Shown here: piece after piece, positions 5,209 through 64,000 of the stretch | Numbering within the stretch: the first letter of the stretch is position 1 | Layout of the letters: each line of letters begins with the position of its first letter | Source: a virus | DNA length: 64,000 nt | Strand: one strand, 5' to 3' | Virus record (IMG/VR): IMGVR_UViG_3300036790_000270 | Coordinates: 32,001-96,000 of that record | Program-made: the position numbers and the translations under genes | Notes under the pieces: generated by a model | Seen by the model: the letters and a program-made list of their open reading frames with translations, nothing else | Databases searched by the model: none | Told to the model about the DNA's origin: nothing

Positions 5209-6708
5209 ATGACGATCGCCGCCGTGCCGTCGGGTGGCGCGCTTGGTTCCGCGACCGCCAAGACATTCACCCTGACGCCCAGTACCGTCGGCGACTTCAT
5301 CCTGCTCTGGGTGACCGCGGAGACCGTTGCGGATTATGCCGTTTCGATCAGTAGCAGCAACATCAGCTGGGTTGTCACGCCCCTGGTCGCCCATCACGCG
5401 TTTACGAACAACCTGGTCGTTCAGTCTGTTTTCATCGGTGAGGTCACCAGCACCAGCGGTGCCACGCAGACAATCGTTACGGCCGCGGGCAGCCCGACGC
5501 TCCGGATCGCCTGGCAGGAATTCAGCACTACGGCCGGGTACGCGTCGATCACCCTCAACGTATCGGGTACCACAGACACCCTTTCTAGCGGCACGATGCC
5601 GCCGGTCACCACCACCGTTACCGGTTGCACTTACGCGGGCTACGTCTACGACAACGGCTCCGGTGTCATCGGTACTACCAGCGGTTACAAGTACCAGCTA
5701 GACACCAACAGCAACCAGTACGCGTACAGCACGACGCCTCTGGGCATTAGCACCTACACCCCGAATATCGGTGACGCGAACGGCACGTCCGGTATCGCTG
5801 TCGCCGTCTACGAGGCCGGGGTCACAGCCAGCGCCGGCCTCGCCCACGGCACGGGCGCCGCCCTGCAGCCGCAGGCAGGCTCCGTCGGCCTTCCGGCCGG
5901 CACTGGCACCGCCCAGCCGCCGACAGCGCAGGTCACTGCCCTTGCGGGGCTCGCCCACGGTGCCGGCACCGCGCAGCAGCCGCAGTTCGGCATTGCTAAC
6001 CCGCCTGCCGCCACGGGCACCGGCACCGCGCAGCAGCCGGCCGCTCAGGTCACTGCCCTCGCCGGGCTCGCGCACGCTGCCGGTACCTCCTTCCAGGTGC
6101 CGGCGCCCGCGGGGCTCGCGCACGGCACCGGCACCGCGCAGCAGCCGTCAAAGCTCGTCGAGCCGTCTGCCGGGCTAGCCGCCGGGGCCGGCAACGTGTT
6201 CCAGCCGACACCGCGCATCCTGCGCAACCCGCAGAACCTCGGTGCCGTCGTCACCCCGCTCGGTCCTAACGCGACCGCCGAGCTTCCGGTCACCGGCGGC
6301 ACCCTCACCCTCGCTGACCTGGGCGCGACCTTCGCCCTGGCTAACCTCGGCGCAAGCCTGACGGGATGGACCATGCAGACAGCCACGCTGAACATCCTTG
6401 AGTTCAACGACGTGACGATCAACCTCGCCATTACCAACAACGGCAGCGCGTACAACCTGGCGTCCGCCACGCTGAACATGCTGTTCAAGAGCGCCGCCGG
6501 CACGCCGGACGCGGACGCGCTGCTCTTCTCCTCCGCGGGCGGCTCCCCGGCCATCACCATCACCAACTCAGCTGGCGGCCTGGCGACCGTGCAGATCCCC
6601 AACGACGACCTGGATACCGAGGCGTACAACTTCTACCGGGTCGACGTGGTTGTCGGCGGGTTCCAGAACACCTGCATCAGCGGGTCGGTCACCTGGACGA
6701 GCCTGTAG
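5209..6708 (+). CDS. putative virion fibre/decoration protein with internal repeats
   Basis: Thr/Ser-rich N-terminus, repeated AGLAHG(T/A)GTAQQP units, C-terminal beta-rich attachment-like domain. Confidence 0.6.
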   Translation: MTIAAVPSGGALGSATAKTFTLTPSTVGDFILLWVTAETVADYAVSISSSNISWVVTPLVAHHAFTNNLVVQSVFIGEVTSTSGATQTIVTAAGSPTLRIAWQEFSTTAGYASITLNVSGTTDTLSSGTMPPVTTTVTGCTYAGYVYDNGSGVIGTTSGYKYQLDTNSNQYAYSTTPLGISTYTPNIGDANGTSGIAVAVYEAGVTASAGLAHGTGAALQPQAGSVGLPAGTGTAQPPTAQVTALAGLAHGAGTAQQPQFGIANPPAATGTGTAQQPAAQVTALAGLAHAAGTSFQVPAPAGLAHGTGTAQQPSKLVEPSAGLAAGAGNVFQPTPRILRNPQNLGAVVTPLGPNATAELPVTGGTLTLADLGATFALANLGASLTGWTMQTATLNILEFNDVTINLAITNNGSAYNLASATLNMLFKSAAGTPDADALLFSSAGGSPAITITNSAGGLATVQIPNDDLDTEAYNFYRVDVVVGGFQNTCISGSVTWTSL

Positions 6709-16673: not shown

Positions 16674-16676
16674 GCA

Positions 16677-16724
16677 CTGCCGGGCGTAGGTCGTATGGGT
16701 TCCGTAACTGCATTGGCCCGGCAG
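16677..16724 (-). ncRNA. solo TIGR-like unit closed by a perfect 9-bp stem
   Basis: On +: ctgccgggc-g-taggtcgta-tgggttccg-taactgcat-tg-gcccggcag. Confidence 0.7.
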
Positions 16725-16749
16725 CTACGCAGTAGAGCGCCCGTCCCCG

Positions 16750-22334: not shown

Positions 22335-22446
22335 CCGTCGCGGGCGCAGCTCCTGTGGGCCTCGTTACGAAGTTGGCCTGCGGCGGTCAGCTGCGAGCAC
22401 TGCGGGCGTTGGCTGACTGGGTTTCGTTTCGAGAGTGGCCCGCGGT
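22330..22446 (-). ncRNA. two hairpin-closed TIGR-like units
   Basis: On +: cagctcctg-tgggcctcg-ttacgaagt and ttggctgac-tgggtttcg-tttcgagag. Each lies between GGGCG and TGGCC and is enclosed by inverted repeats. Confidence 0.7.
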
Positions 22447-22534
22447 AGTCGCAACAGCTGAGTAGCGGCCGGTATTCCGCCCGTATAGGGTCAGCGTAGG
22501 GAGCGCTCGGCAGACCGCTGAGCTGGCCTGAGTC

Positions 22535-35655: not shown

Positions 35656-35996
35656 ACCCGGAATGGCTCACTGCGCTAGCCGCGCTGATCACGATCGTCG
35701 CCGGGATACTCGCCTGGGGTGCACAGAAAGTCTGGTACGTCTTCCGGCGCACGGATCAGTTCCTGGAAGACTGGAACGGTGTTTCAGCTGACAAGGGTCA
35801 CGAAGGGTATCCCGGTGTGATGACCCGGCTGCTAGCGCTAGAGCACAGCATGACCGACATCCAGGGGCAGGTGCACCTGAACAGCGGGCACTCAATGCGA
35901 GATGAAGTACAGCGTACCGAGGCCGCCGTGGAAGAGCTGACGATCAAGCTAGGAAAAGTAGAGCTGACGGTTAACGAGCTGAATGGCCGCCAGTAA
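35652..35996 (+). CDS. membrane protein with coiled coil (lysis-cassette type)
   Basis: N-terminal TM helix. DW.G...PGV..RL..LE...NSGHSMRD motif, common after actinophage tail genes. Confidence 0.6.
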   Translation: MNPEWLTALAALITIVAGILAWGAQKVWYVFRRTDQFLEDWNGVSADKGHEGYPGVMTRLLALEHSMTDIQGQVHLNSGHSMRDEVQRTEAAVEELTIKLGKVELTVNELNGRQ

Positions 35997-35999
35997 CGC

Positions 36000-36117
36000 G
36001 CCGGCGTCTGGGAGTTGGGTTTCGTAAACGACTTGGCCGGGCGTAGATTGATTGGGTCTCGCATGCGATATGGCCCCGGCGTAAGTAAGCTGGGTTTCGT
36101 GACCTGATTGGCCGGGA
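36000..36117 (-). repeat. TIGR-like mini-array, 3 units
   Basis: Spacer pairs on +: tctgggagt/taaacgact, tagattgat/catgcgata, taagtaagc/tgacctgat. Loops tgggt(t/c)tcg; edges tggcc..ggcg. Confidence 0.8.
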
Positions 36118-36124
36118 GCCCGGG

Positions 36125-36283
36125 TCAGAGCAGCTTCTGCAGTTCCGCCAGGATCGCGGTGAACTGAGCCGTTACGAACTTCACGGCAAGCGCTACTTCG
36201 GTCTTGCCCTCGGTCACCATCTGCTGCTCCAGTGCCTGCAGGTCGGCAATCAGGCCTTGCAGGTCGGTGATGATCTCGTTCAT
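36125..36283 (-). CDS. small helical protein (52 aa)
   Basis: Translated by hand: MNEIITDLQGLIADLQALEQQ...AELQKLL. GGAAGGG upstream. Confidence 0.55.
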   Translation of the reverse strand: MNEIITDLQGLIADLQALEQQMVTEGKTEVALAVKFVTAQFTAILAELQKLL

Positions 36284-36965: not shown

Positions 36966-37023
36966 CGCCCGCGCCCGGCGTTACATGTTTGGGCCCCGCA
37001 AGTGGAATGGCCGGGCGCGGGCG
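36966..37023 (-). ncRNA. solo TIGR-like unit closed by a perfect 14-bp stem
   Basis: On +: cgcccgcgcccggc-g-ttacatgtt-tgggccccg-caagtggaa-tg-gccgggcgcgggcg. Confidence 0.75.
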
Positions 37024-58516: not shown

Positions 58517-58648
58517 GGCGGGCAAGGCGTCGCCAGTTTGGGTTTCGCCGTCGTCATGGCCTCACGCGCCGCACAAGCCGTTCCGCAGGCAGGGAGTAAG
58601 GCGTGTGGTTATTGGGTCTCGTCAGGTAGGTAGCCTCACGCCCCGCCT
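58517..58648 (-). ncRNA. two separate TIGR-like units
   Basis: On +: aggcg-tcgccagtt-tgggtttcg-ccgtcgtca-tggcct and aggcg-tgtggttat-tgggtctcg-tcaggtagg-tagcct. Confidence 0.65.
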
Positions 58649-58650
58649 TG

Positions 58651-59415
58651 CTACGGCCGCAGCAGCCAGGAGAAGATCTCCGCGCCCTCGTTCCGCTCGG
58701 TCACCGTCGCCGAGTTGGCTTCCTCCCGGGCCATCTTCACCGCGGTGCGCAGTGCCGACAGCCGGTCGAGCAGCTCCGCCTTCCGCTTCGCCTCCAGGGC
58801 GCCGGAGAAGCTCACCGTCGTGTTGTACTCGACGATCTCGTCGCGGGTCATCACGTCGACCTGCTCCTGGATCGTCGGGGTGCCGTTGCCGCGGTGCCAG
58901 TTGAACATGACCTTGTCCTTCAGGTCACCTTCCTGCGGGCGCACCGAGCGCCACTGGCCGGGCTCGGTGTTCTCATTCGTCCAGTCCTGCACCCCGTTCA
59001 GCACCGGGAGCGCCTGCACGATGGCGTGCAGCTTGGTGAGCTCGCCTTCCAGGTACACCAGGTGCCGGACCGGGACGTCGTGCATGACGGTGTGCGGCCC
59101 GACCACGACGTCCGCCTTCGCCGCGCCCTGGGCGGTGTCCAGGGTCAGCGCGGTGTCCCACTTGGCAGTCAGCAGCGTCTTCACGTCATCGAGGACCTGA
59201 ACCGCGGTGTAGGCGACCTTCTTCTTCACGTCGGGGGTCACCCGGCGGCGCTGGTGGTTCGGGTCGACGGAGTCACTCGCCGCGACCGACTCCTTCTCCA
59301 TCCCGCTGAACAGCTCCGGCTTGGCGACCACCTGGGACACCCGGGCGAGCGCCGTGTCGGTCTCGGTGTTAACCCCGCTGATGATCGCAAGCAGCTGGTG
59401 AATCCGGACGGGCAT
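58651..59415 (-). CDS. conserved hypothetical coiled-coil protein upstream of the ncRNA cluster
   Basis: AAGGAG RBS. AKADVVV...DVPV..L.YLE..L...LPVL...FSGAL...ELLDR...AVK.AREEAN recalls a widespread uncharacterised bacterial/phage family. Confidence 0.75.
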   Translation of the reverse strand: MPVRIHQLLAIISGVNTETDTALARVSQVVAKPELFSGMEKESVAASDSVDPNHQRRRVTPDVKKKVAYTAVQVLDDVKTLLTAKWDTALTLDTAQGAAKADVVVGPHTVMHDVPVRHLVYLEGELTKLHAIVQALPVLNGVQDWTNENTEPGQWRSVRPQEGDLKDKVMFNWHRGNGTPTIQEQVDVMTRDEIVEYNTTVSFSGALEAKRKAELLDRLSALRTAVKMAREEANSATVTERNEGAEIFSWLLRP

Positions 59416-59450
59416 CCTTGCTCTCCTTTATACGTTTACGTTTACACGAG

Positions 59451-59606
59451 ACCGGGCGTTACTACCTTGGGCCTCGTGTCTCGGGTGGCCCGGCGTCGTA
59501 CGTTTGGGTTACGTCTTGCTGGCCGGGGCGTTACTACCTTGGGCCTCGTGTCTGCGTTGGCCCCGGCGTTTGTGCTGTGGGCCTCGTCATGATGCTGGCC
59601 GGGACG
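59451..59606 (-). repeat. TIGR-like array, 4 units (one with a 6-nt spacer)
   Basis: Pairs on +: ttactacct/tgtctcggg, tcgtacgtt/tcttgc, ttactacct/tgtctgcgt, tttgtgctg/tcatgatgc. Confidence 0.8.
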
Positions 59607-59993
59607 CCACGGCCCCGGGAGGCACTACACCATGCCTCCCGGGGCCTTTCCCTCCTCCGGCGCGCGTACCGGCCGTCCCGGCAGGGTGCCTTCAGCGTGC
59701 CGGAGCTTTATGCCGCGCCGGGTCAGGCAGCCTGCGCGGGGAACGGGGCGGTGCTGGTGAGCCGCTGGTAAAGGCCGTGGAGGGCCTCCGTCGCGGTGAC
59801 CTCGGGGGCCTGCGCCAGGCACGCGCCCTGGCTGTTCGACCAGTTCATGCTTTCCTCCTGATAAGTCGGCCCGCGGTACCCGTCCCGGGATTAGCCCCCG
59901 TTATGAGCAGGGCCGCTGACTGGCCCGGGAACGGGTTCGCTGCGGGGGCTGCACCGCGGTACTGGCGGCGTCCCTCCGCCGTCGTACAGCATC

Positions 59994-60275
59994 TTACACG
60001 CTCTCGCCGGGCCGTGTCAGCGACTTAACCGAAGGCGCAGGCGATTTTGGTCTCGTGTCATCGTTGGCCTCCGTCTCGTCGCCGAGCACGCTGATTACCG
60101 CGTCCAGCACGTCGTCGGGCCGCTTCTCCGCGACCTTCAGCAGCACTGCCAGCAGCACCTCGCCGTCCGCGTCCAGCGCCAGGCGCCCGGATAGCAGCAG
60201 CCGGATCTTCTGCCGCACGTGCCGGTACGGTATTCCCTTGTCCGGGTCCGGCGCCCCGGCGTAACCACGTGGCAT
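59994..60275 (-). CDS. hypothetical protein
   Basis: ORF track; AAGGA upstream. The 3' end overlaps a degenerate TIGR-like unit at 60030-60073. Confidence 0.5.
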   Translation of the reverse strand: MPRGYAGAPDPDKGIPYRHVRQKIRLLLSGRLALDADGEVLLAVLLKVAEKRPDDVLDAVISVLGDETEANDDTRPKSPAPSVKSLTRPGESV

Positions 60276-60285
60276 CGCACTGTCC

Positions 60286-61242
60286 TTACCGGCGGGCCTG
60301 CTCCAGCGCCTGGTGCGCCTTAGACAGGGCCAGCAGGTTGCCGTCCTTGCCGGGCAGCGGCAGGAAGTCCGGCACCGAGCTGGCCGCGAAGTACTTCAGG
60401 CCGGTCCGCGGGCGCACGTCGAAGTTCGGGTTCACCCGGGCGTAGTTCTCATTGCGGGCGTGCTTGTTCCACGCGGTGGTGAACGCGTACAGCTCCATCA
60501 GCCGCTTGTCGGCTGGCAGCCGGTCCCGGACCGTGCCGAGCAGCAGCCAGTTGTGCAGGGTAAGCGCCGGGTTGCCCCGGTCCAGGTTGGCGCCGGTGCG
60601 CACCGACTCCCAGAAGCCGTCCGGGTCAATCTTGGTGACCGTGCCGTCCTCGTCGCGCTCCGCCGTCCGCATGATCGCGTACCCGGCGACCGACGGGTTG
60701 GCCCGCACCGCCCGGTACAGCGCCTCGCCCCGGTGGATCGCGTCGGTGATTCCCGGTGCGTCCACCCACGCGTCCTGTGACGCCCGGGTCAGCGCCTGCT
60801 TGCCGGGGTTACGCACCCCGTCGATGCCGTAGTTCTCGTACAGCGCCATGTACTTGGCGAGCACCGAGGCCCGCTTGTAATCGGGTATCGCCAGCATCCG
60901 CAGGGTGTCCGCGTAGGTGCGCTTGCGGCCCGTGTCGATGTACTCGGCCTCCTCTGTGGTGATGCCCCGGATGAACGGCAGGTACGTGGCGATGCCGGTC
61001 CGGATGATCGCCGCGAAGCGGTGCTGGCCGTCCCAGGCCCGGTCCGCGTCGTCCAGGTAAACGGGGCTGATCCCCGGGAAGAACGTGCCCTCCCGCAGGT
61101 TCAGCTCCATCACCGCGGTATCCAGCTTCGACTGGCTGCGGTTGGCGTGCATCGTCTTCAGGTACCGCTCGGCGTCCTTCGGCGTCACCAGCGTCATCTC
61201 AAAGGTGACGTGCGCCGGGAACGGGACTTCGGTACTGGTCAC
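60286..61242 (-). CDS. ParB/Srx-fold DGQHR-motif protein
   Basis: GTG at 61242 after AGGAGG. VTP..AE.YL...NR...DGQHRFAAI...IDTGRKRT..D.L. Confidence 0.8.
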   Translation of the reverse strand: MTSTEVPFPAHVTFEMTLVTPKDAERYLKTMHANRSQSKLDTAVMELNLREGTFFPGISPVYLDDADRAWDGQHRFAAIIRTGIATYLPFIRGITTEEAEYIDTGRKRTYADTLRMLAIPDYKRASVLAKYMALYENYGIDGVRNPGKQALTRASQDAWVDAPGITDAIHRGEALYRAVRANPSVAGYAIMRTAERDEDGTVTKIDPDGFWESVRTGANLDRGNPALTLHNWLLLGTVRDRLPADKRLMELYAFTTAWNKHARNENYARVNPNFDVRPRTGLKYFAASSVPDFLPLPGKDGNLLALSKAHQALEQARR

Positions 61243-61341
61243 GCGGTCCTCCTGAAAAGGGGATAGCAGAAGTTGTGTCATGGCTGCTCGGAACAAGCTG
61301 GCTGCGGTATCTATTCCGCGTCAGGGCCACCGCCCTCGCGA

Positions 61342-61594
61342 GCCCCGCAGGCGTCACGGGAATGGGTTTCGTGTCGACTTTGGCCTGCCAGGGGCCGGCG
61401 TTCTACCTGTGGGTTCCGTCCTCGGTTTGGCCGGGCGTTACTTGTTTGGGTCTCGTGAAGGCGTTGGCCCGGCGTGGTTCAGGCGGGTTCCGTGCTCGGT
61501 TTGGCCTGGCGCTGTGCCGCTGGGTTCCGTGAAGTAGTTGGCCGGGCCCGGCGTAACATCATTGGGTTCCGCCTCACTTTTGGCCGGGCCCGCG
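61342..61594 (-). repeat. TIGR-like array, 6 units
   Basis: Six tgggt(t/c)(c/t)cg-type loops, each flanked by two 9-nt spacers and tggcc..ggcg edges. Confidence 0.85.
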
Positions 61595-61600
61595 CCAGGC

Positions 61601-61741
61601 TTACTGCATCGCCCCGCAGCCGTTAGCCAGGCAGATATGGCGCCCGTCGTGGTTAACGTCGTCCCCGCACCGGTGCAGGCTGCCCGGGTGGGCCGGCTCC
61701 TTCAGCGTCCCCCAGCTGTGCCCGCATGCTCTTACTGCCAT
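61601..61741 (-). CDS. tiny Cys/His-rich peptide (46 aa) between two arrays
   Basis: GGAGAAGGAG RBS; MAVRACGHSWGTLKEPAHPGSLHRCGDDVNHDGRHICLANGCGAMQ. Confidence 0.6.
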   Translation of the reverse strand: MAVRACGHSWGTLKEPAHPGSLHRCGDDVNHDGRHICLANGCGAMQ

Positions 61742-61760
61742 CAGCTTCTCCTTCTCCGGG

Positions 61761-62088
61761 TGCCCGGCGTTTGCCTTTTGGGTCTCGTAGGCCGTATGGC
61801 CGGGCCCGGCGTGGCGACATTGGGTCCCGTCAAGCTTGATGGCCGGGCCCGGCGTTTGTGGACTGGGTCTCGTGAGGACTATGGCCGGGCGTGATGGATT
61901 TGGGTCTCGTGTCTCAGATGGCCCGGCGTTGTCCTGTTGGGTTCCGTGTCGACTTTGGCCGGGCGTTACTGTCGTGGGTTCCGTTGCTCGGTTGGCCCGG
62001 CGTGCATCCAATGGGTTCCGTGAACTTGATGGCCGGGCAGCACGGCGGCGGCGTTCCAGGAATGGGTTCCGTTACTACACTGGCCGCC
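61761..62088 (-). repeat. TIGR-like array, 8 units, directly downstream of the Tas-like gene
   Basis: Eight loop repeats with 9-nt (one 10-nt) spacer pairs. Edges tggccgggcg, tggcccggcg or tggccgggcccggcg. Confidence 0.9.
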
Positions 62089-62094
62089 TGCCCG

Positions 62095-62982
62095 CTACCG
62101 GCCGCGGTGCCGTCCCCGGTTCTCCTCCCCCACCCGGACCGTCCCGTACACCGGCGCGTCCCCGGCTGCCGTCAGCCACAGGTCCCGCAGGATCTCCTTA
62201 CCGGTGTGCCGCAGCCCGATCGCGTGCACGTGCGACTTCTGGTACGGGTCCCCGGCCAGGGCGTAACCGAGCTTCACCTTGCCGCCGGCCGCGTCATCCG
62301 GGGTTGCCAGCGGGTCAGTGTCATCAGGGACGTGCGTCTTGCACTTGACGTACAGCTTCCCGCTGTACCCGCCCACGCAGTCCCGGGTGTGCACCCGCCC
62401 GCTGTAGGCTGCCTTCACGTCGTCGTAGACCTTCCGGTACCCGGTACCCGCCTTCGCGGTGCTCTTCACCTGCGCGACCGACATCAGGTAGACCAGCTTC
62501 TTCGCGTCGGGGCGCCCGTTGGCCATCAGCGCGTCCGCGTCGCCCTTCACGTTCCGGTTCTTCGGCGCGCCCACTGAGCAGTATTGCCACAGCTCGCCCA
62601 CCCCCCGCGGGTGCTCCTCGTCGTCGATCAGGTGCCGCCCCGGGCCCTCGCCCTCCCAGTGCCGCGGGGAGGCCGTCCGCGGGTCACCGGTGATGCCCAG
62701 CAGCCGGGCCAGGGTATGCTCGCCGATCCCCGCGCTCTCCTGCTGCCAGCGCTGCACGCTTTCCGGCACCGTCATCCGGTAGCAGGCCGTCAGCTCCGCC
62801 TCCAGCCGCTTCTCCGCCTCCTTGTACAGCTCCAGCACCGGGCCGAGCGCGTCCAGCGTCACCGTCCCCGACCGCTTGGTGTTCTCGAACGCGATCCGGG
62901 CGGCCTGCGCGTCCGCGAACTCCTCCGCCCACATCCGCAGCTCGGTGTACGAGCCCGGGTTGGTGCGCCTGACATTCGTCAT
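62095..62982 (-). CDS. tasA: TasA-like IS110/Nop-domain RNA-binding protein without nuclease domain
   Basis: N-terminal coiled coil (D.Q..RIAFEN), GIGEHTLARLLG, LWQYCSVG, YRKVYD..K, H..GLR..GKEILRDLW. No RuvC (DEDD) or HNH region. Flanked by dual-spacer arrays. AAGGAG RBS. Confidence 0.8.
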   Translation of the reverse strand: MTNVRRTNPGSYTELRMWAEEFADAQAARIAFENTKRSGTVTLDALGPVLELYKEAEKRLEAELTACYRMTVPESVQRWQQESAGIGEHTLARLLGITGDPRTASPRHWEGEGPGRHLIDDEEHPRGVGELWQYCSVGAPKNRNVKGDADALMANGRPDAKKLVYLMSVAQVKSTAKAGTGYRKVYDDVKAAYSGRVHTRDCVGGYSGKLYVKCKTHVPDDTDPLATPDDAAGGKVKLGYALAGDPYQKSHVHAIGLRHTGKEILRDLWLTAAGDAPVYGTVRVGEENRGRHRGR

Positions 62983-63000
62983 TTCCTTTTCTCCTTGCGA

Positions 63001-63645
63001 TGGCCGGCGTATTGTGTACGGGTTCCGTCGTGTGCATGGCCGCCGGGGCGTTAACAGGGTGGGTTCCGTGAGGCAGTTGGCCCGGCGTTGTTCTCTTGGG
63101 TTCCGTTGCTCGATTTGGCCGGGCCTGGCGTTAGCTAGTTGGGTTCCGTGAGGCAGTTGGCCGGGCGTTAACGTGGTGGGTTCCGTGACTCGGTTGGCCG
63201 GGCGTTACTGCCCTGGGTTCCGTGTGCCTGTTGGCCCGGCGTCGTGATTTTTGGGTTCCGTACCTGAAGTGGCCGGGCGTCATGTTTTTGGGTTCCGTGG
63301 AAGCGGTGGCCCGGCGTCATGGCATTGGGCCTCGTTACGGTGGTGGCCGGGCGTGCAGTCATTGGGTTTCGTTACTCAGTTGGCCCGGCGTGCGTCCAAT
63401 GGGCTCCGTTGGAGTGGTGGCCGGGCGTTCAGCCATTGGGTCTCGTTAACTCAGTTGGCCCGGCGTGACCAGTATGGGTTCCGTTACGTAGCTGGCCGGG
63501 CGATACCTGATTGGGTTCCGCGGGAGTGGTGGCCCGGCGTGGGTCGCATGGGTTCCGTAACGGGTTTGGCCGGGCGTAACACCGATGGGTCTCGTTGCGT
63601 GGTTGGCCTGGCGCCCGGACACCGGGTTCCGTCATGCGGCCGGCC
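63001..63645 (-). repeat. TIGR-like array, 17 units of about 37 nt, directly upstream of the Tas-like gene
   Basis: On +: (tggccgggcg or tggcccggcg)-N9-tgggttccg-N9. 34 spacers, of which 31 are 9 nt and 3 are 10 nt. Confidence 0.93.
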
Positions 63646-64000
63646 TAGGCGCCCACCGGGGCGTCCTGCCCCAGCAGGCTGTCCGGCAGCGCGCCGAACC
63701 GGTCCGCGTAATCATCCAGGTCGGGGCAGCCCGCCTGCGCCAGCAGCGCCGCCGCGCTCTCGTGCCGGGCGATCGTCGCGTCCGCCCCGCTGACGTACCG
63801 GCGCTTGCACTCGCGCAGGAACGCGGCCCGCAGCCGGTGGTGCTCCGGGGTCAGCCGCCCCCAGGGAACCTGCCCCTGGCCCGGCACGTAGCAGGTCTCG
63901 CCGAGCAGCCGCCGCATCGCGTCCTCCGCCGGGTTGGTGTAGGCGGCCAGCTCACCGCGGACCGCCGGCGGGGCGGAGCTGAACGCCCGCTTCTCGCTGC
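63645..64000 (-). CDS. hypothetical protein, probably 5'-truncated by the window edge
   Basis: ORF 63645-63917 stays open upstream (...VRGELAAYTNPAEDAMRRLLG...). Its stop abuts the array. Confidence 0.55.
   Translation of the reverse strand, partial: SEKRAFSSAPPAVRGELAAYTNPAEDAMRRLLGETCYVPGQGQVPWGRLTPEHHRLRAAFLRECKRRYVSGADATIARHESAAALLAQAGCPDLDDYADRFGALPDSLLGQDAPVGA

Follow-up and report, generated by a model that had tools for sequence, protein, structure and literature searches.

How can every unit of a guide RNA array be closed by a stem when its neighbors lie only 5 nt away? This question is raised by a run of repeats at 63195..63576 in the contig of a soil virus. The window, meaning the whole stretch of DNA that we analyzed, is 64,000 nt long and corresponds to bases 32001-96000 of the 117,211-base contig (IMG/VR record IMGVR_UViG_3300036790_000270; 67% G+C); contig positions refer to the window unless a genome position is specified. 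The run, on the minus strand, consists of 11 shared edges bounding 10 units that resemble the guide RNAs (tigRNAs) of TIGR (tandem interspaced guide RNA) systems, and it belongs to an array adjoining a gene for a TIGR-associated (Tas) protein. TIGR-Tas systems were first described in 2025, and stem-loop maturation, array growth, and the relation between array layouts are questions on which this locus bears. The reading that we favor, and consider quite probable, is that this is a TIGR array of a nuclease-less Tas protein with a ParB/DGQHR-like partner, in which neighboring units share stem arms, pairing of the shared arms forces the edges to alternate, and the transcript folds in two registers.

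Alternating edges and shared stem arms

The sequence TGGCCSGGCG is present at all 11 edge coordinates of the run (63195, 63232, 63270, 63307, 63344, 63381, 63418, 63456, 63493, 63530, and 63567), which are spaced 37-38 nt apart. Consecutive edges switch between TGGCCGGGCG and TGGCCCGGCG, and the middle base of the 11 edges reads, in order, G, C, G, C, G, C, G, C, G, C, G. By simple arithmetic, only 1 of 462 random orders of six G and five C edges alternates strictly. Overall, the window contains 22 copies of TGGCCSGGCG, all on the plus strand, compared to a mean of 2.27 and a maximum of 6 in dinucleotide shuffles; none of 100 shuffles reached 22. A second series of compact edges (61882-62030) likewise alternates G, C, G, C, G. 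The assembly of a second soil run (X2, record 14) spans 63193-63700 and differs at only two positions, 63285 and 63288, both within one spacer and none in edges, so the alternation is not an artifact of a single assembly. The original prediction, made from the sequence alone, had reported 11 edges alternating between two mutually complementary forms; the coordinates, the order, and the complementarity (GCCGGGC is the reverse complement of GCCCGGC) are all confirmed, and the alternation is a real feature. The long edges that it described as holding both halves do so at 61540, 61798, and 61841, where GGCCGGGCCCGGC carries both arms side by side.

Read on the tas (minus) strand, the unit is CCA-N9-CG-N4-CCA-N9-CG, with CCA as box C (CNA in TIGR systems generally), CG as box D (generally YG), and 9-nt spacers. 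The 4-nt loop gap is typically GAAC, and the loop as a whole is CG-(GAAC/AGAC/AAAC/AGGC)-CCA with invariant box columns. The next unit begins 5 nt on, giving a layout of 14+4+14+5 = 37 nt. The closing stem starts at the box C/box D pair and extends outward for 7 bp as G-CCSGG-C; its outermost pair is drawn from the box bases of neighboring units. The 7-nt arm comprises the box D G of one unit, the 5-nt gap, and the box C base with which the next unit begins. An A precedes box D in at least 70% of units (alignment A2, columns 22 and 40); box D is effectively ACG, and the freely variable part of the spacer is 8 nt.

Among the 31 adjacent unit pairs on the contig, 20 have a gap of exactly 5 nt, with stems of 7 bp. 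Because only 5 nt separate such units, the 3' arm of one hairpin is the 5' arm of the next, and because an arm X must close the units on both of its sides, the edges must run X, reverse complement of X, X, reverse complement of X. With GCC and GGC fixed at the ends of the 7-nt arm, only the central base is free, leaving a G/C flip. An odd gap would thus force G/C alternation, longer common arms would show alternation at two positions, and double edges, which carry both arms, would reset the phase. This yields a checkable rule, namely that where arms are fully shared, each edge is the reverse complement of the one before it. The earlier proposal that a 7-bp stem can close every unit holds for 10 of 10 units of the run.

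We counted complementary edges among detected units lying between two compact edges in six sequences, comprising the contig itself (G000), L010, L011, L062, L063, and L073; units with degenerate boxes escape detection and hence fall outside this count. Complementarity was found in 26 of 28 units with 5-nt gaps, 10 of 11 with 6-nt gaps, and all 3 with 4-nt gaps, and in the 6-nt gaps both variable positions always change jointly. In L010, whose Tas protein shares 68% identity with that of the window, three arrays alternate CCGGG/CCCGG, CCGGGG/CCCCGG, and CCGCCG/CGGCGG, respectively. The L063 array alternates CCGGGG/CCCCGG, and L073, an unrelated 1648-bp contig with no tas gene on it, carries an array alternating CCGGG/CCCGG. 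In L062 (67% protein identity), every edge at 2784-2930 is CG-CCGG-CCA, with a 4-nt palindromic gap, a 36-nt period, and 6-bp stems. This layout is formally dual-repeat, and its palindrome needs no alternation.

We then aligned 76 units without gaps (37 from the window and 39 from relatives) and considered the closing helix. Paired cells made up 83.7% of the helix compared to 69.5% in shuffles, and the covariation score was 0.288 compared to 0.079 in shuffles (reached by 0 of 500; slid controls ≤0.105), although the rows are interdependent, as neighbors share an edge and the arrays are related, and these scores describe a pattern rather than a probability. Over the 76 units, the central stem pair was C-G in 40, G-C in 26, A-U in 2, and unpaired in 8. 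When no structure was supplied, RNAalifold returned the identical seven pairs, five of them with compensatory changes. Together, the alternation in relatives and the covariation support the view that these edges have been under selection for pairing.

The Tas protein, proposed folding registers, and half stems

The protein encoded by the tas gene (P0001; 62095..62982, minus strand, 295 amino acids) had no match in Pfam (up to E 10) and no useful phmmer match in PDB when searched alone. A family profile built from 60 of its 119 database relatives matched TasR (9mty, the structure solved by Faure et al.) at E 2.1e-15 and TasH at E 2.1e-12 in PDB. P0001 also matches phrog_4285 and NCBIfam NF052498 TIGR_Tas_endo (E 5.9e-23), the latter with 82 bits, under the curated cutoff of 100. 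The top 10 Foldseek matches in PDB to its AlphaFold (AF2) model (predicted local distance difference test score 88.9) are TasH and TasR chains with probability 1.00, followed by IS110-type recombinases. The protein consists of a coiled coil from its start and a Nop-type domain, and the nuclease domain is absent. Because it begins at the coiled coil without a nuclease domain, P0001 is, as judged from these profile and model comparisons, a nuclease-less, TasA-like Tas protein. The presence of this Tas homologue between arrays whose units have box C/box D geometry bears out the earlier assignment of the locus to TIGR arrays.

Most of the 119 family members end 4-10 residues past a conserved LRDLW motif. 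The clade to which the window's Tas belongs has a tail of 25-45 residues, in which the tyrosine is often phenylalanine and the histidine is unconserved, and thus has no conserved tyrosine/histidine (Y/H) dyad. In SpTasH, it is Y289/H296 on a tail of this kind that cut the edge repeats (PMC13421893), and the Xu et al. preprint describes the dyad as absent from all stem-loop clades.

Competition between neighbors for their common edge, which had also been predicted, is unavoidable for full stems because the gap offers 5 nt, fewer than the 6 nt that the stem requires in addition to a box base. Partition-function folding of a minus-strand transcript (62990-63660) gave the helices 63426-63389 and 63389-63352, which compete for the edge at 63389, probabilities of 0.40 and 0.59, respectively. 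In the mechanism that we propose, neighboring units on one transcript could not both keep the full 7-bp stem, and a precursor would adopt one of two registers, in which stems close the odd-numbered units or else the even-numbered ones. Loading of TasA dimers would take place on the closed units, and trimming would be left to a host RNase rather than to Tas, because the Y/H processing tail is missing. The transcript population as a whole would yield both guide sets, double edges would allow both neighbors to fold, and array growth or exchange would keep phase by proceeding in two-unit (about 74-nt) steps or via a double edge. The sharing rule thus predicts competition between neighboring guides and two-unit changes in arrays.

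In attenuator-type hairpins, one segment pairs with either of two partners, and the resulting structures are mutually exclusive. The alternative pairing proposed here is mutually exclusive in the same sense, but the motif is iterated along a guide array rather than forming a single switch, and no link to translation or termination is shown.

The competing account that survives best is that the 7-bp stems are transient or play no part: each arm would split as 3+1+3, a 3-bp half stem would close every unit simultaneously, cuts would fall mid-edge as in dual-repeat arrays, and a single transcript would give rise to all guides, free of competition between odd and even units. Several features fit it. 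The layout of 14+4+14+5 is one base off the dual-repeat layout, the edges of L062 are true palindromes of 4 nt repeating every 36 nt, and boxes and spacers look intact in odd and even units alike. In addition, about 2 bp is enough for dual-repeat tigRNAs according to the text of Faure et al., in agreement with our dual-repeat control, Salicola phage CGphi29, in which there is one edge form, AAGCGAGCCA, and a closing stem of 2 bp compared to 7 bp here. The Salicola parse was a fixed 18-nt parse, in register for 11 repeats, with the first four units per phase counted; Tandem Repeats Finder (TRF) reported no array on this phage. Along with the L062 array and a naturally occurring unit with two G edges, the Salicola array served as a control for identical edges. 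However, if half stems were sufficient, the central bases would vary freely, and instead the edges are fully complementary in nearly all of the 5-nt and 6-nt units counted above, two-position changes included. Furthermore, this Tas family is without the conserved Y/H tail that cuts dual-repeat edges, and many solo units on the same contig have stems of 9-16 bp, the sequence of each stem being unique. We therefore regard closure by half stems alone as possible but rather doubtful.

We also entertain, tentatively and with well under even confidence, a stricter version of the two-register reading, in which each transcript matures odd or even guides only and co-transcriptional folding biases the choice. 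If this were true, double and mismatched edges would act as phase resets, and guides would be grown, lost, or exchanged in two-unit blocks. Given the 4-, 5-, 6-, and 10-nt edges found within one Tas clade, dual-repeat-like arrays could then derive from stem-loop ones as adjoining stems come to overlap progressively, linking the two layouts, and new TIGR guides would come from duplication, half-unit shuffling, and point change rather than from capture of foreign DNA.

A number of observations weigh against shared arms folding in two registers. The naked-RNA fold on the tas strand also gives helices between edges three units apart, with probabilities up to 0.54, so the two-register picture is idealized. 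Half stems of 3 bp could form simultaneously and close all units, as in dual-repeat tigRNAs, in which case there would be no exclusivity after loading. On the contig, 2 of 17 doubly compact 5-nt units are not complementary, and alternation is broken directly beside the run, where edge 63158 carries G as well, giving a G/G unit (63158-63195). The interdependence of the alignment rows, mentioned above, belongs here as well. With respect to growth in two-unit steps, the mean similarity of units at lag 2 gave P = 0.066, and there are no clear duplicate units in L010, L011, L063, or L073. Finally, this contig taken alone has 3 G-U and 8 A-C combinations inside closing stems on the tas strand, the reverse of the family trend described below, and three edges with a T can pair with G edges on the plus strand only. 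This reversal might reflect decay at array ends or small numbers. Non-Watson-Crick stem positions on the contig include 22335-22386, 61503, 63121, and 63604.

Strand of the guides and growth of the array

The repeats were first written on the plus strand, and here our analysis departs from the original prediction. We searched 52 IMG/VR loci encoding P0001 relatives for CCA-N9-YG-N4-CCA-N9-YG, requiring 4 bp or more in the closing stem, and found 271 canonical units on the tas strand compared to 4 on the other. CCA/CG is among the box C/box D pairs listed for stem-loop arrays by TIGRFinder (Xu et al. preprint), and the arrays flank the tas gene on both sides on the same strand. Judging from these patterns, the guide RNA strand is most likely the minus strand. 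Inside closing stems read on the tas strand, G-U outnumbers A-C by 49 to 14 in the whole family and by 46 to 6 outside this contig, an excess that indicates pairing in RNA rather than in DNA; edge pairing thus most likely occurs in RNA.

The alternative is that the transcript comes from the plus strand, or that the repeats act at the DNA level as sites for the ParB/DGQHR-like protein or as cruciform palindromes. On this contig, G-U pairs do number 8 on the plus strand compared to 3, the T edges wobble-pair on that strand only, four solo units lie between plus-strand genes, and a ParB-like gene sits within the locus. Yet the CCA/CG boxes, the 9-nt spacers, and the 4-nt loop gap fit the tas strand only, and a plus-strand reading would need CGU as box C, which is outside the motif set published in the Xu et al. 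preprint. DNA pairing predicts equal numbers of G-T and A-C, contrary to the G-U excess outside this contig, and the unit count in relatives is similarly one-sided. We consider this alternative improbable.

The suggestion that the true duplication period may be about 74 nt finds weak support. The three most alike of 1275 unit pairs on the contig are 75, 72, and 80 nt apart, but the mean lag-2 similarity reaches only the P value given above. On a soil contig from run X3 (63430-63556), a 75-nt stretch from loop to loop is replaced and a G edge is kept at a G position. The length of the array is unchanged in this variant, one unit's spacers and loop differ, the insert includes a copy like 63344-63392, and there are 0 changes in the edge centers covered. 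In L062, where the edge form is single and palindromic, two near-identical units are adjacent, 36 nt apart. Growth in 74-nt steps is plausible, if weakly supported, given the three unit pairs and the one contig variant.

Least tenable is the account of the alternation as a neutral relic of tandem duplication of a 74-nt block with one G and one C edge, with no selection on pairing: the TRF score of period 74, at least as good as that of period 37 within 63269-63541, and the two-unit distance between the three most alike pairs agree with it, but most spacers in the run are unrelated (mean 7.9-8.6 matches of 18 at every lag compared to 7.8 in shuffles), so that edges have outlived spacers, independent arrays with other spacers and arms (L010, L063, L073) obey the same rule, two-position changes in the 6-nt gaps are joint, and solo units with unique stems covary, which together make it very unlikely.

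Exact 9-nt spacers are common to separate arrays at 61958 and 61383, and at 61921 and genome position 108312 (window coordinate 76312). In total, 4 of 1275 unit pairs share an exact 9-mer, and the second spacer of each unit is unrelated, which points to shuffling of half-units, with exchange at the conserved loop or edge, or to targets that have half-sites in common. In TIGR-Tas systems, a guide's two spacers match neighboring stretches of a DNA target, one on each strand. The guides of the contig had no self-match within it at two or fewer mismatches; at three mismatches there were 5, compared to 1.6 per shuffle.

Array layouts and the surrounding locus

Relatives at 25-45% identity have classical stem-loop arrays, with unit-specific stems of 7-13 bp, gaps of 18-45 nt, and no arm overlap. 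Overlapping arms were found in 24 of 31 adjacent pairs on the window contig, 12 of 12 in L010, and 4 of 4 in L011, and partially in two other lineages (L027, 8 of 17; L014, 2 of 7). In L027 (32% identity, low G+C), the arrays at 1040-1150 and 5919-6100 have 5-nt gaps of the form CTNAG with G, T, or A at the center, which pair partly with their neighbors via G-U or U-A, a hint of more than one origin of compaction. Within a single Tas clade, layouts thus form a graded series from separate stems through double edges and shared 6- and 5-nt gaps to a 4-nt palindromic edge, which makes an evolutionary link between the two known layouts testable. A metagenome scan with the single P0001 protein found 2 short loci only, and a viral scan with the exact two-edge pattern found only the two known contigs. 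A pattern scan of a genome collection gave 10 loci, of which only L073 was an array; the other nine had fewer than three units each and look like chance matches.

These comparisons support the description of the flagged array as a stem-loop-type system compacted to within one base of dual-repeat geometry. The original prediction had called it an intermediate between the two types, which agrees with the missing Y/H tail, the stem-loop arrays of distant members, and the 37-nt layout. As in the stem-loop arrays of Peromyscus gut TasA, PateTasR, and CsTasR (Faure et al. 2025 and the 2026 preprints of Xu et al. and Guan et al.), complementary flanks at box C and box D close dual-spacer units, the Tas protein is without the Y/H processing tail, CCA and CG serve as boxes, and solo units and mini-arrays occur at scattered positions. 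Unlike in those arrays, there is no linker, the arms of neighbors are the same 7 nt, only two alternating arm sequences occur in place of variable ones, stems are short (7-8 bp), and the loop is a conserved 9-nt repeat. Variable stems and linkers are found in the contig's solo units and in distant relatives rather than in the flagged array. The edges (CG-CCSGG-CCA) contain no CTT, in contrast to the CUU at the stem base described in the Xu et al. preprint.

The dual-repeat arrays of TaTasR, SpTasH, and FpTasA resemble the flagged array in their regular period (36 nt compared to 37 nt here), edge and loop repeats that are conserved and about 10 nt long, 4-nt loop gap, 9-nt spacers, and tas gene flanked by arrays. 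They differ in that the edge gap here is 5 or 6 nt rather than 4, the edge has two complementary forms rather than one, and a conserved Y/H dyad is missing from the Tas protein; L062 and one edge of the window, at 63011, do show the dual-repeat 4-nt gap. Like the tasA-tasParB operons of Faure et al. (2025), the locus has a nuclease-less Tas beside a putatively ParB-like gene, with arrays upstream, downstream, and between the genes. The accessible text of that paper describes dual-repeat and stem-loop arrays, possible intermediates with conserved loops, and TasParB loci; it calls the tasA-tasParB arrays dual-repeat and contains nothing on alternating complementary edges, and the accessible supplementary tables carry no ParB, stem-loop, or dual labels. 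The legend of Extended Data Fig. 2f in the Xu et al. 2026 preprint includes the single phrase "overlapping stems," which, as here, implies that stems of adjacent units can overlap; the forced order of X and its reverse complement, competition, phase-resetting double edges, and two-unit steps are absent from the preprint's accessible text. A full-text literature search, covering text but not figures or supplementary PDFs, found no account of reverse-complement edge repeats in tigRNA, and on overlapping stems in TIGR arrays the Xu et al. preprint was the one relevant match. TIGR-Tas is a known kind of system, with overlapping stems mentioned in one preprint legend, and the locus is not a new kind. 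The sharing rule could also guide the design of multiplex arrays that need no linkers, for use with TasA-based repressors or activators.

The flagged run, in which the edges read G-CCSGG-C on the tas strand, is part of an upstream array of about 17 units at 62998..63650 (minus strand), both end units of which are degenerate. Besides the G/G break (63158/63195), this array has a palindromic edge of 4 nt (63011), a single long double edge (63116), and one T edge, TGGCCTGGCG, at 63604, where the alternation ends after edge 63567. On the other side of the tas gene, an array of 8-9 units at 61761..62095 (minus strand) has two long double edges followed by the G, C, G, C, G series; contiguous stems measure at least 7 bp in seven of eight detected units and 6 bp in one. 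An open reading frame of 49 amino acids rich in Cys and His (61601..61750, minus strand), which had no family match, separates this array from another of about seven units at 61342..61600 (minus strand), where compact, T-bearing, and long edges are mixed.

That last array lies upstream of the DGQHR/ParB-like gene (P0002; 60286..61296, minus strand, 336 amino acids as listed), which is on the tas strand about 800 nt downstream of tas, with the arrays in between. P0002 had no Pfam match (up to E 10), no NCBIfam match, and nothing useful by phmmer against PDB. Its translation contains a DGQHR motif, and its structural look-alikes in Atlas are annotated "DGQHR domain-containing protein" (TM 0.70-0.72), with ParB_N in 14% of the members of one look-alike cluster; it also matches phrog_5931. 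L010, L011, and L063, all close relatives, are the only ones in which a P0002 homologue adjoins tas. Based on the motif and the Atlas look-alikes, P0002 likely corresponds to tasParB as reported by Faure et al. Across this part of the locus, an Rfam scan (59000-64000, E up to 1) and a megablast search of 60000-64000 against phage records gave no match, and a promoter/terminator scan of 59300-64000 did no better than shuffles and was uninformative on strand. Among RNA runs, none was listed as containing 61300-63700.

Altogether, the 117-kb contig carries 51 tigRNA-like units with a single sense strand (window 11342-63616 and beyond). Of these, 49 are intergenic, with 39 between minus-strand genes and 4 between plus-strand genes; the last are therefore antisense to their neighbors. 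Farther from tas, unit parsing identified on the minus strand a mini-array of four units, one of them degenerate, with 6-nt gaps of the CCGGGG/CCCCGG type (59447..59612), a three-unit mini-array (35995..36125), and a solo unit with a 14-bp closing stem (36969..37020). A solo unit with a closing stem of 9-10 bp (16675..16726, minus strand) has plus-strand genes on either side, and two solo units (22335..22448, minus strand) lie between two very large plus-strand genes; one of these has a 16-position stem, with two G-U pairs only when read on the plus strand. Two further units occur in reverse orientation at genome positions 74013 and 83615. A DUF7873 gene (58651-59415, minus strand; E 6.8e-53) lies between the mini-array at 59450 and solo units at 58526 and 58600.

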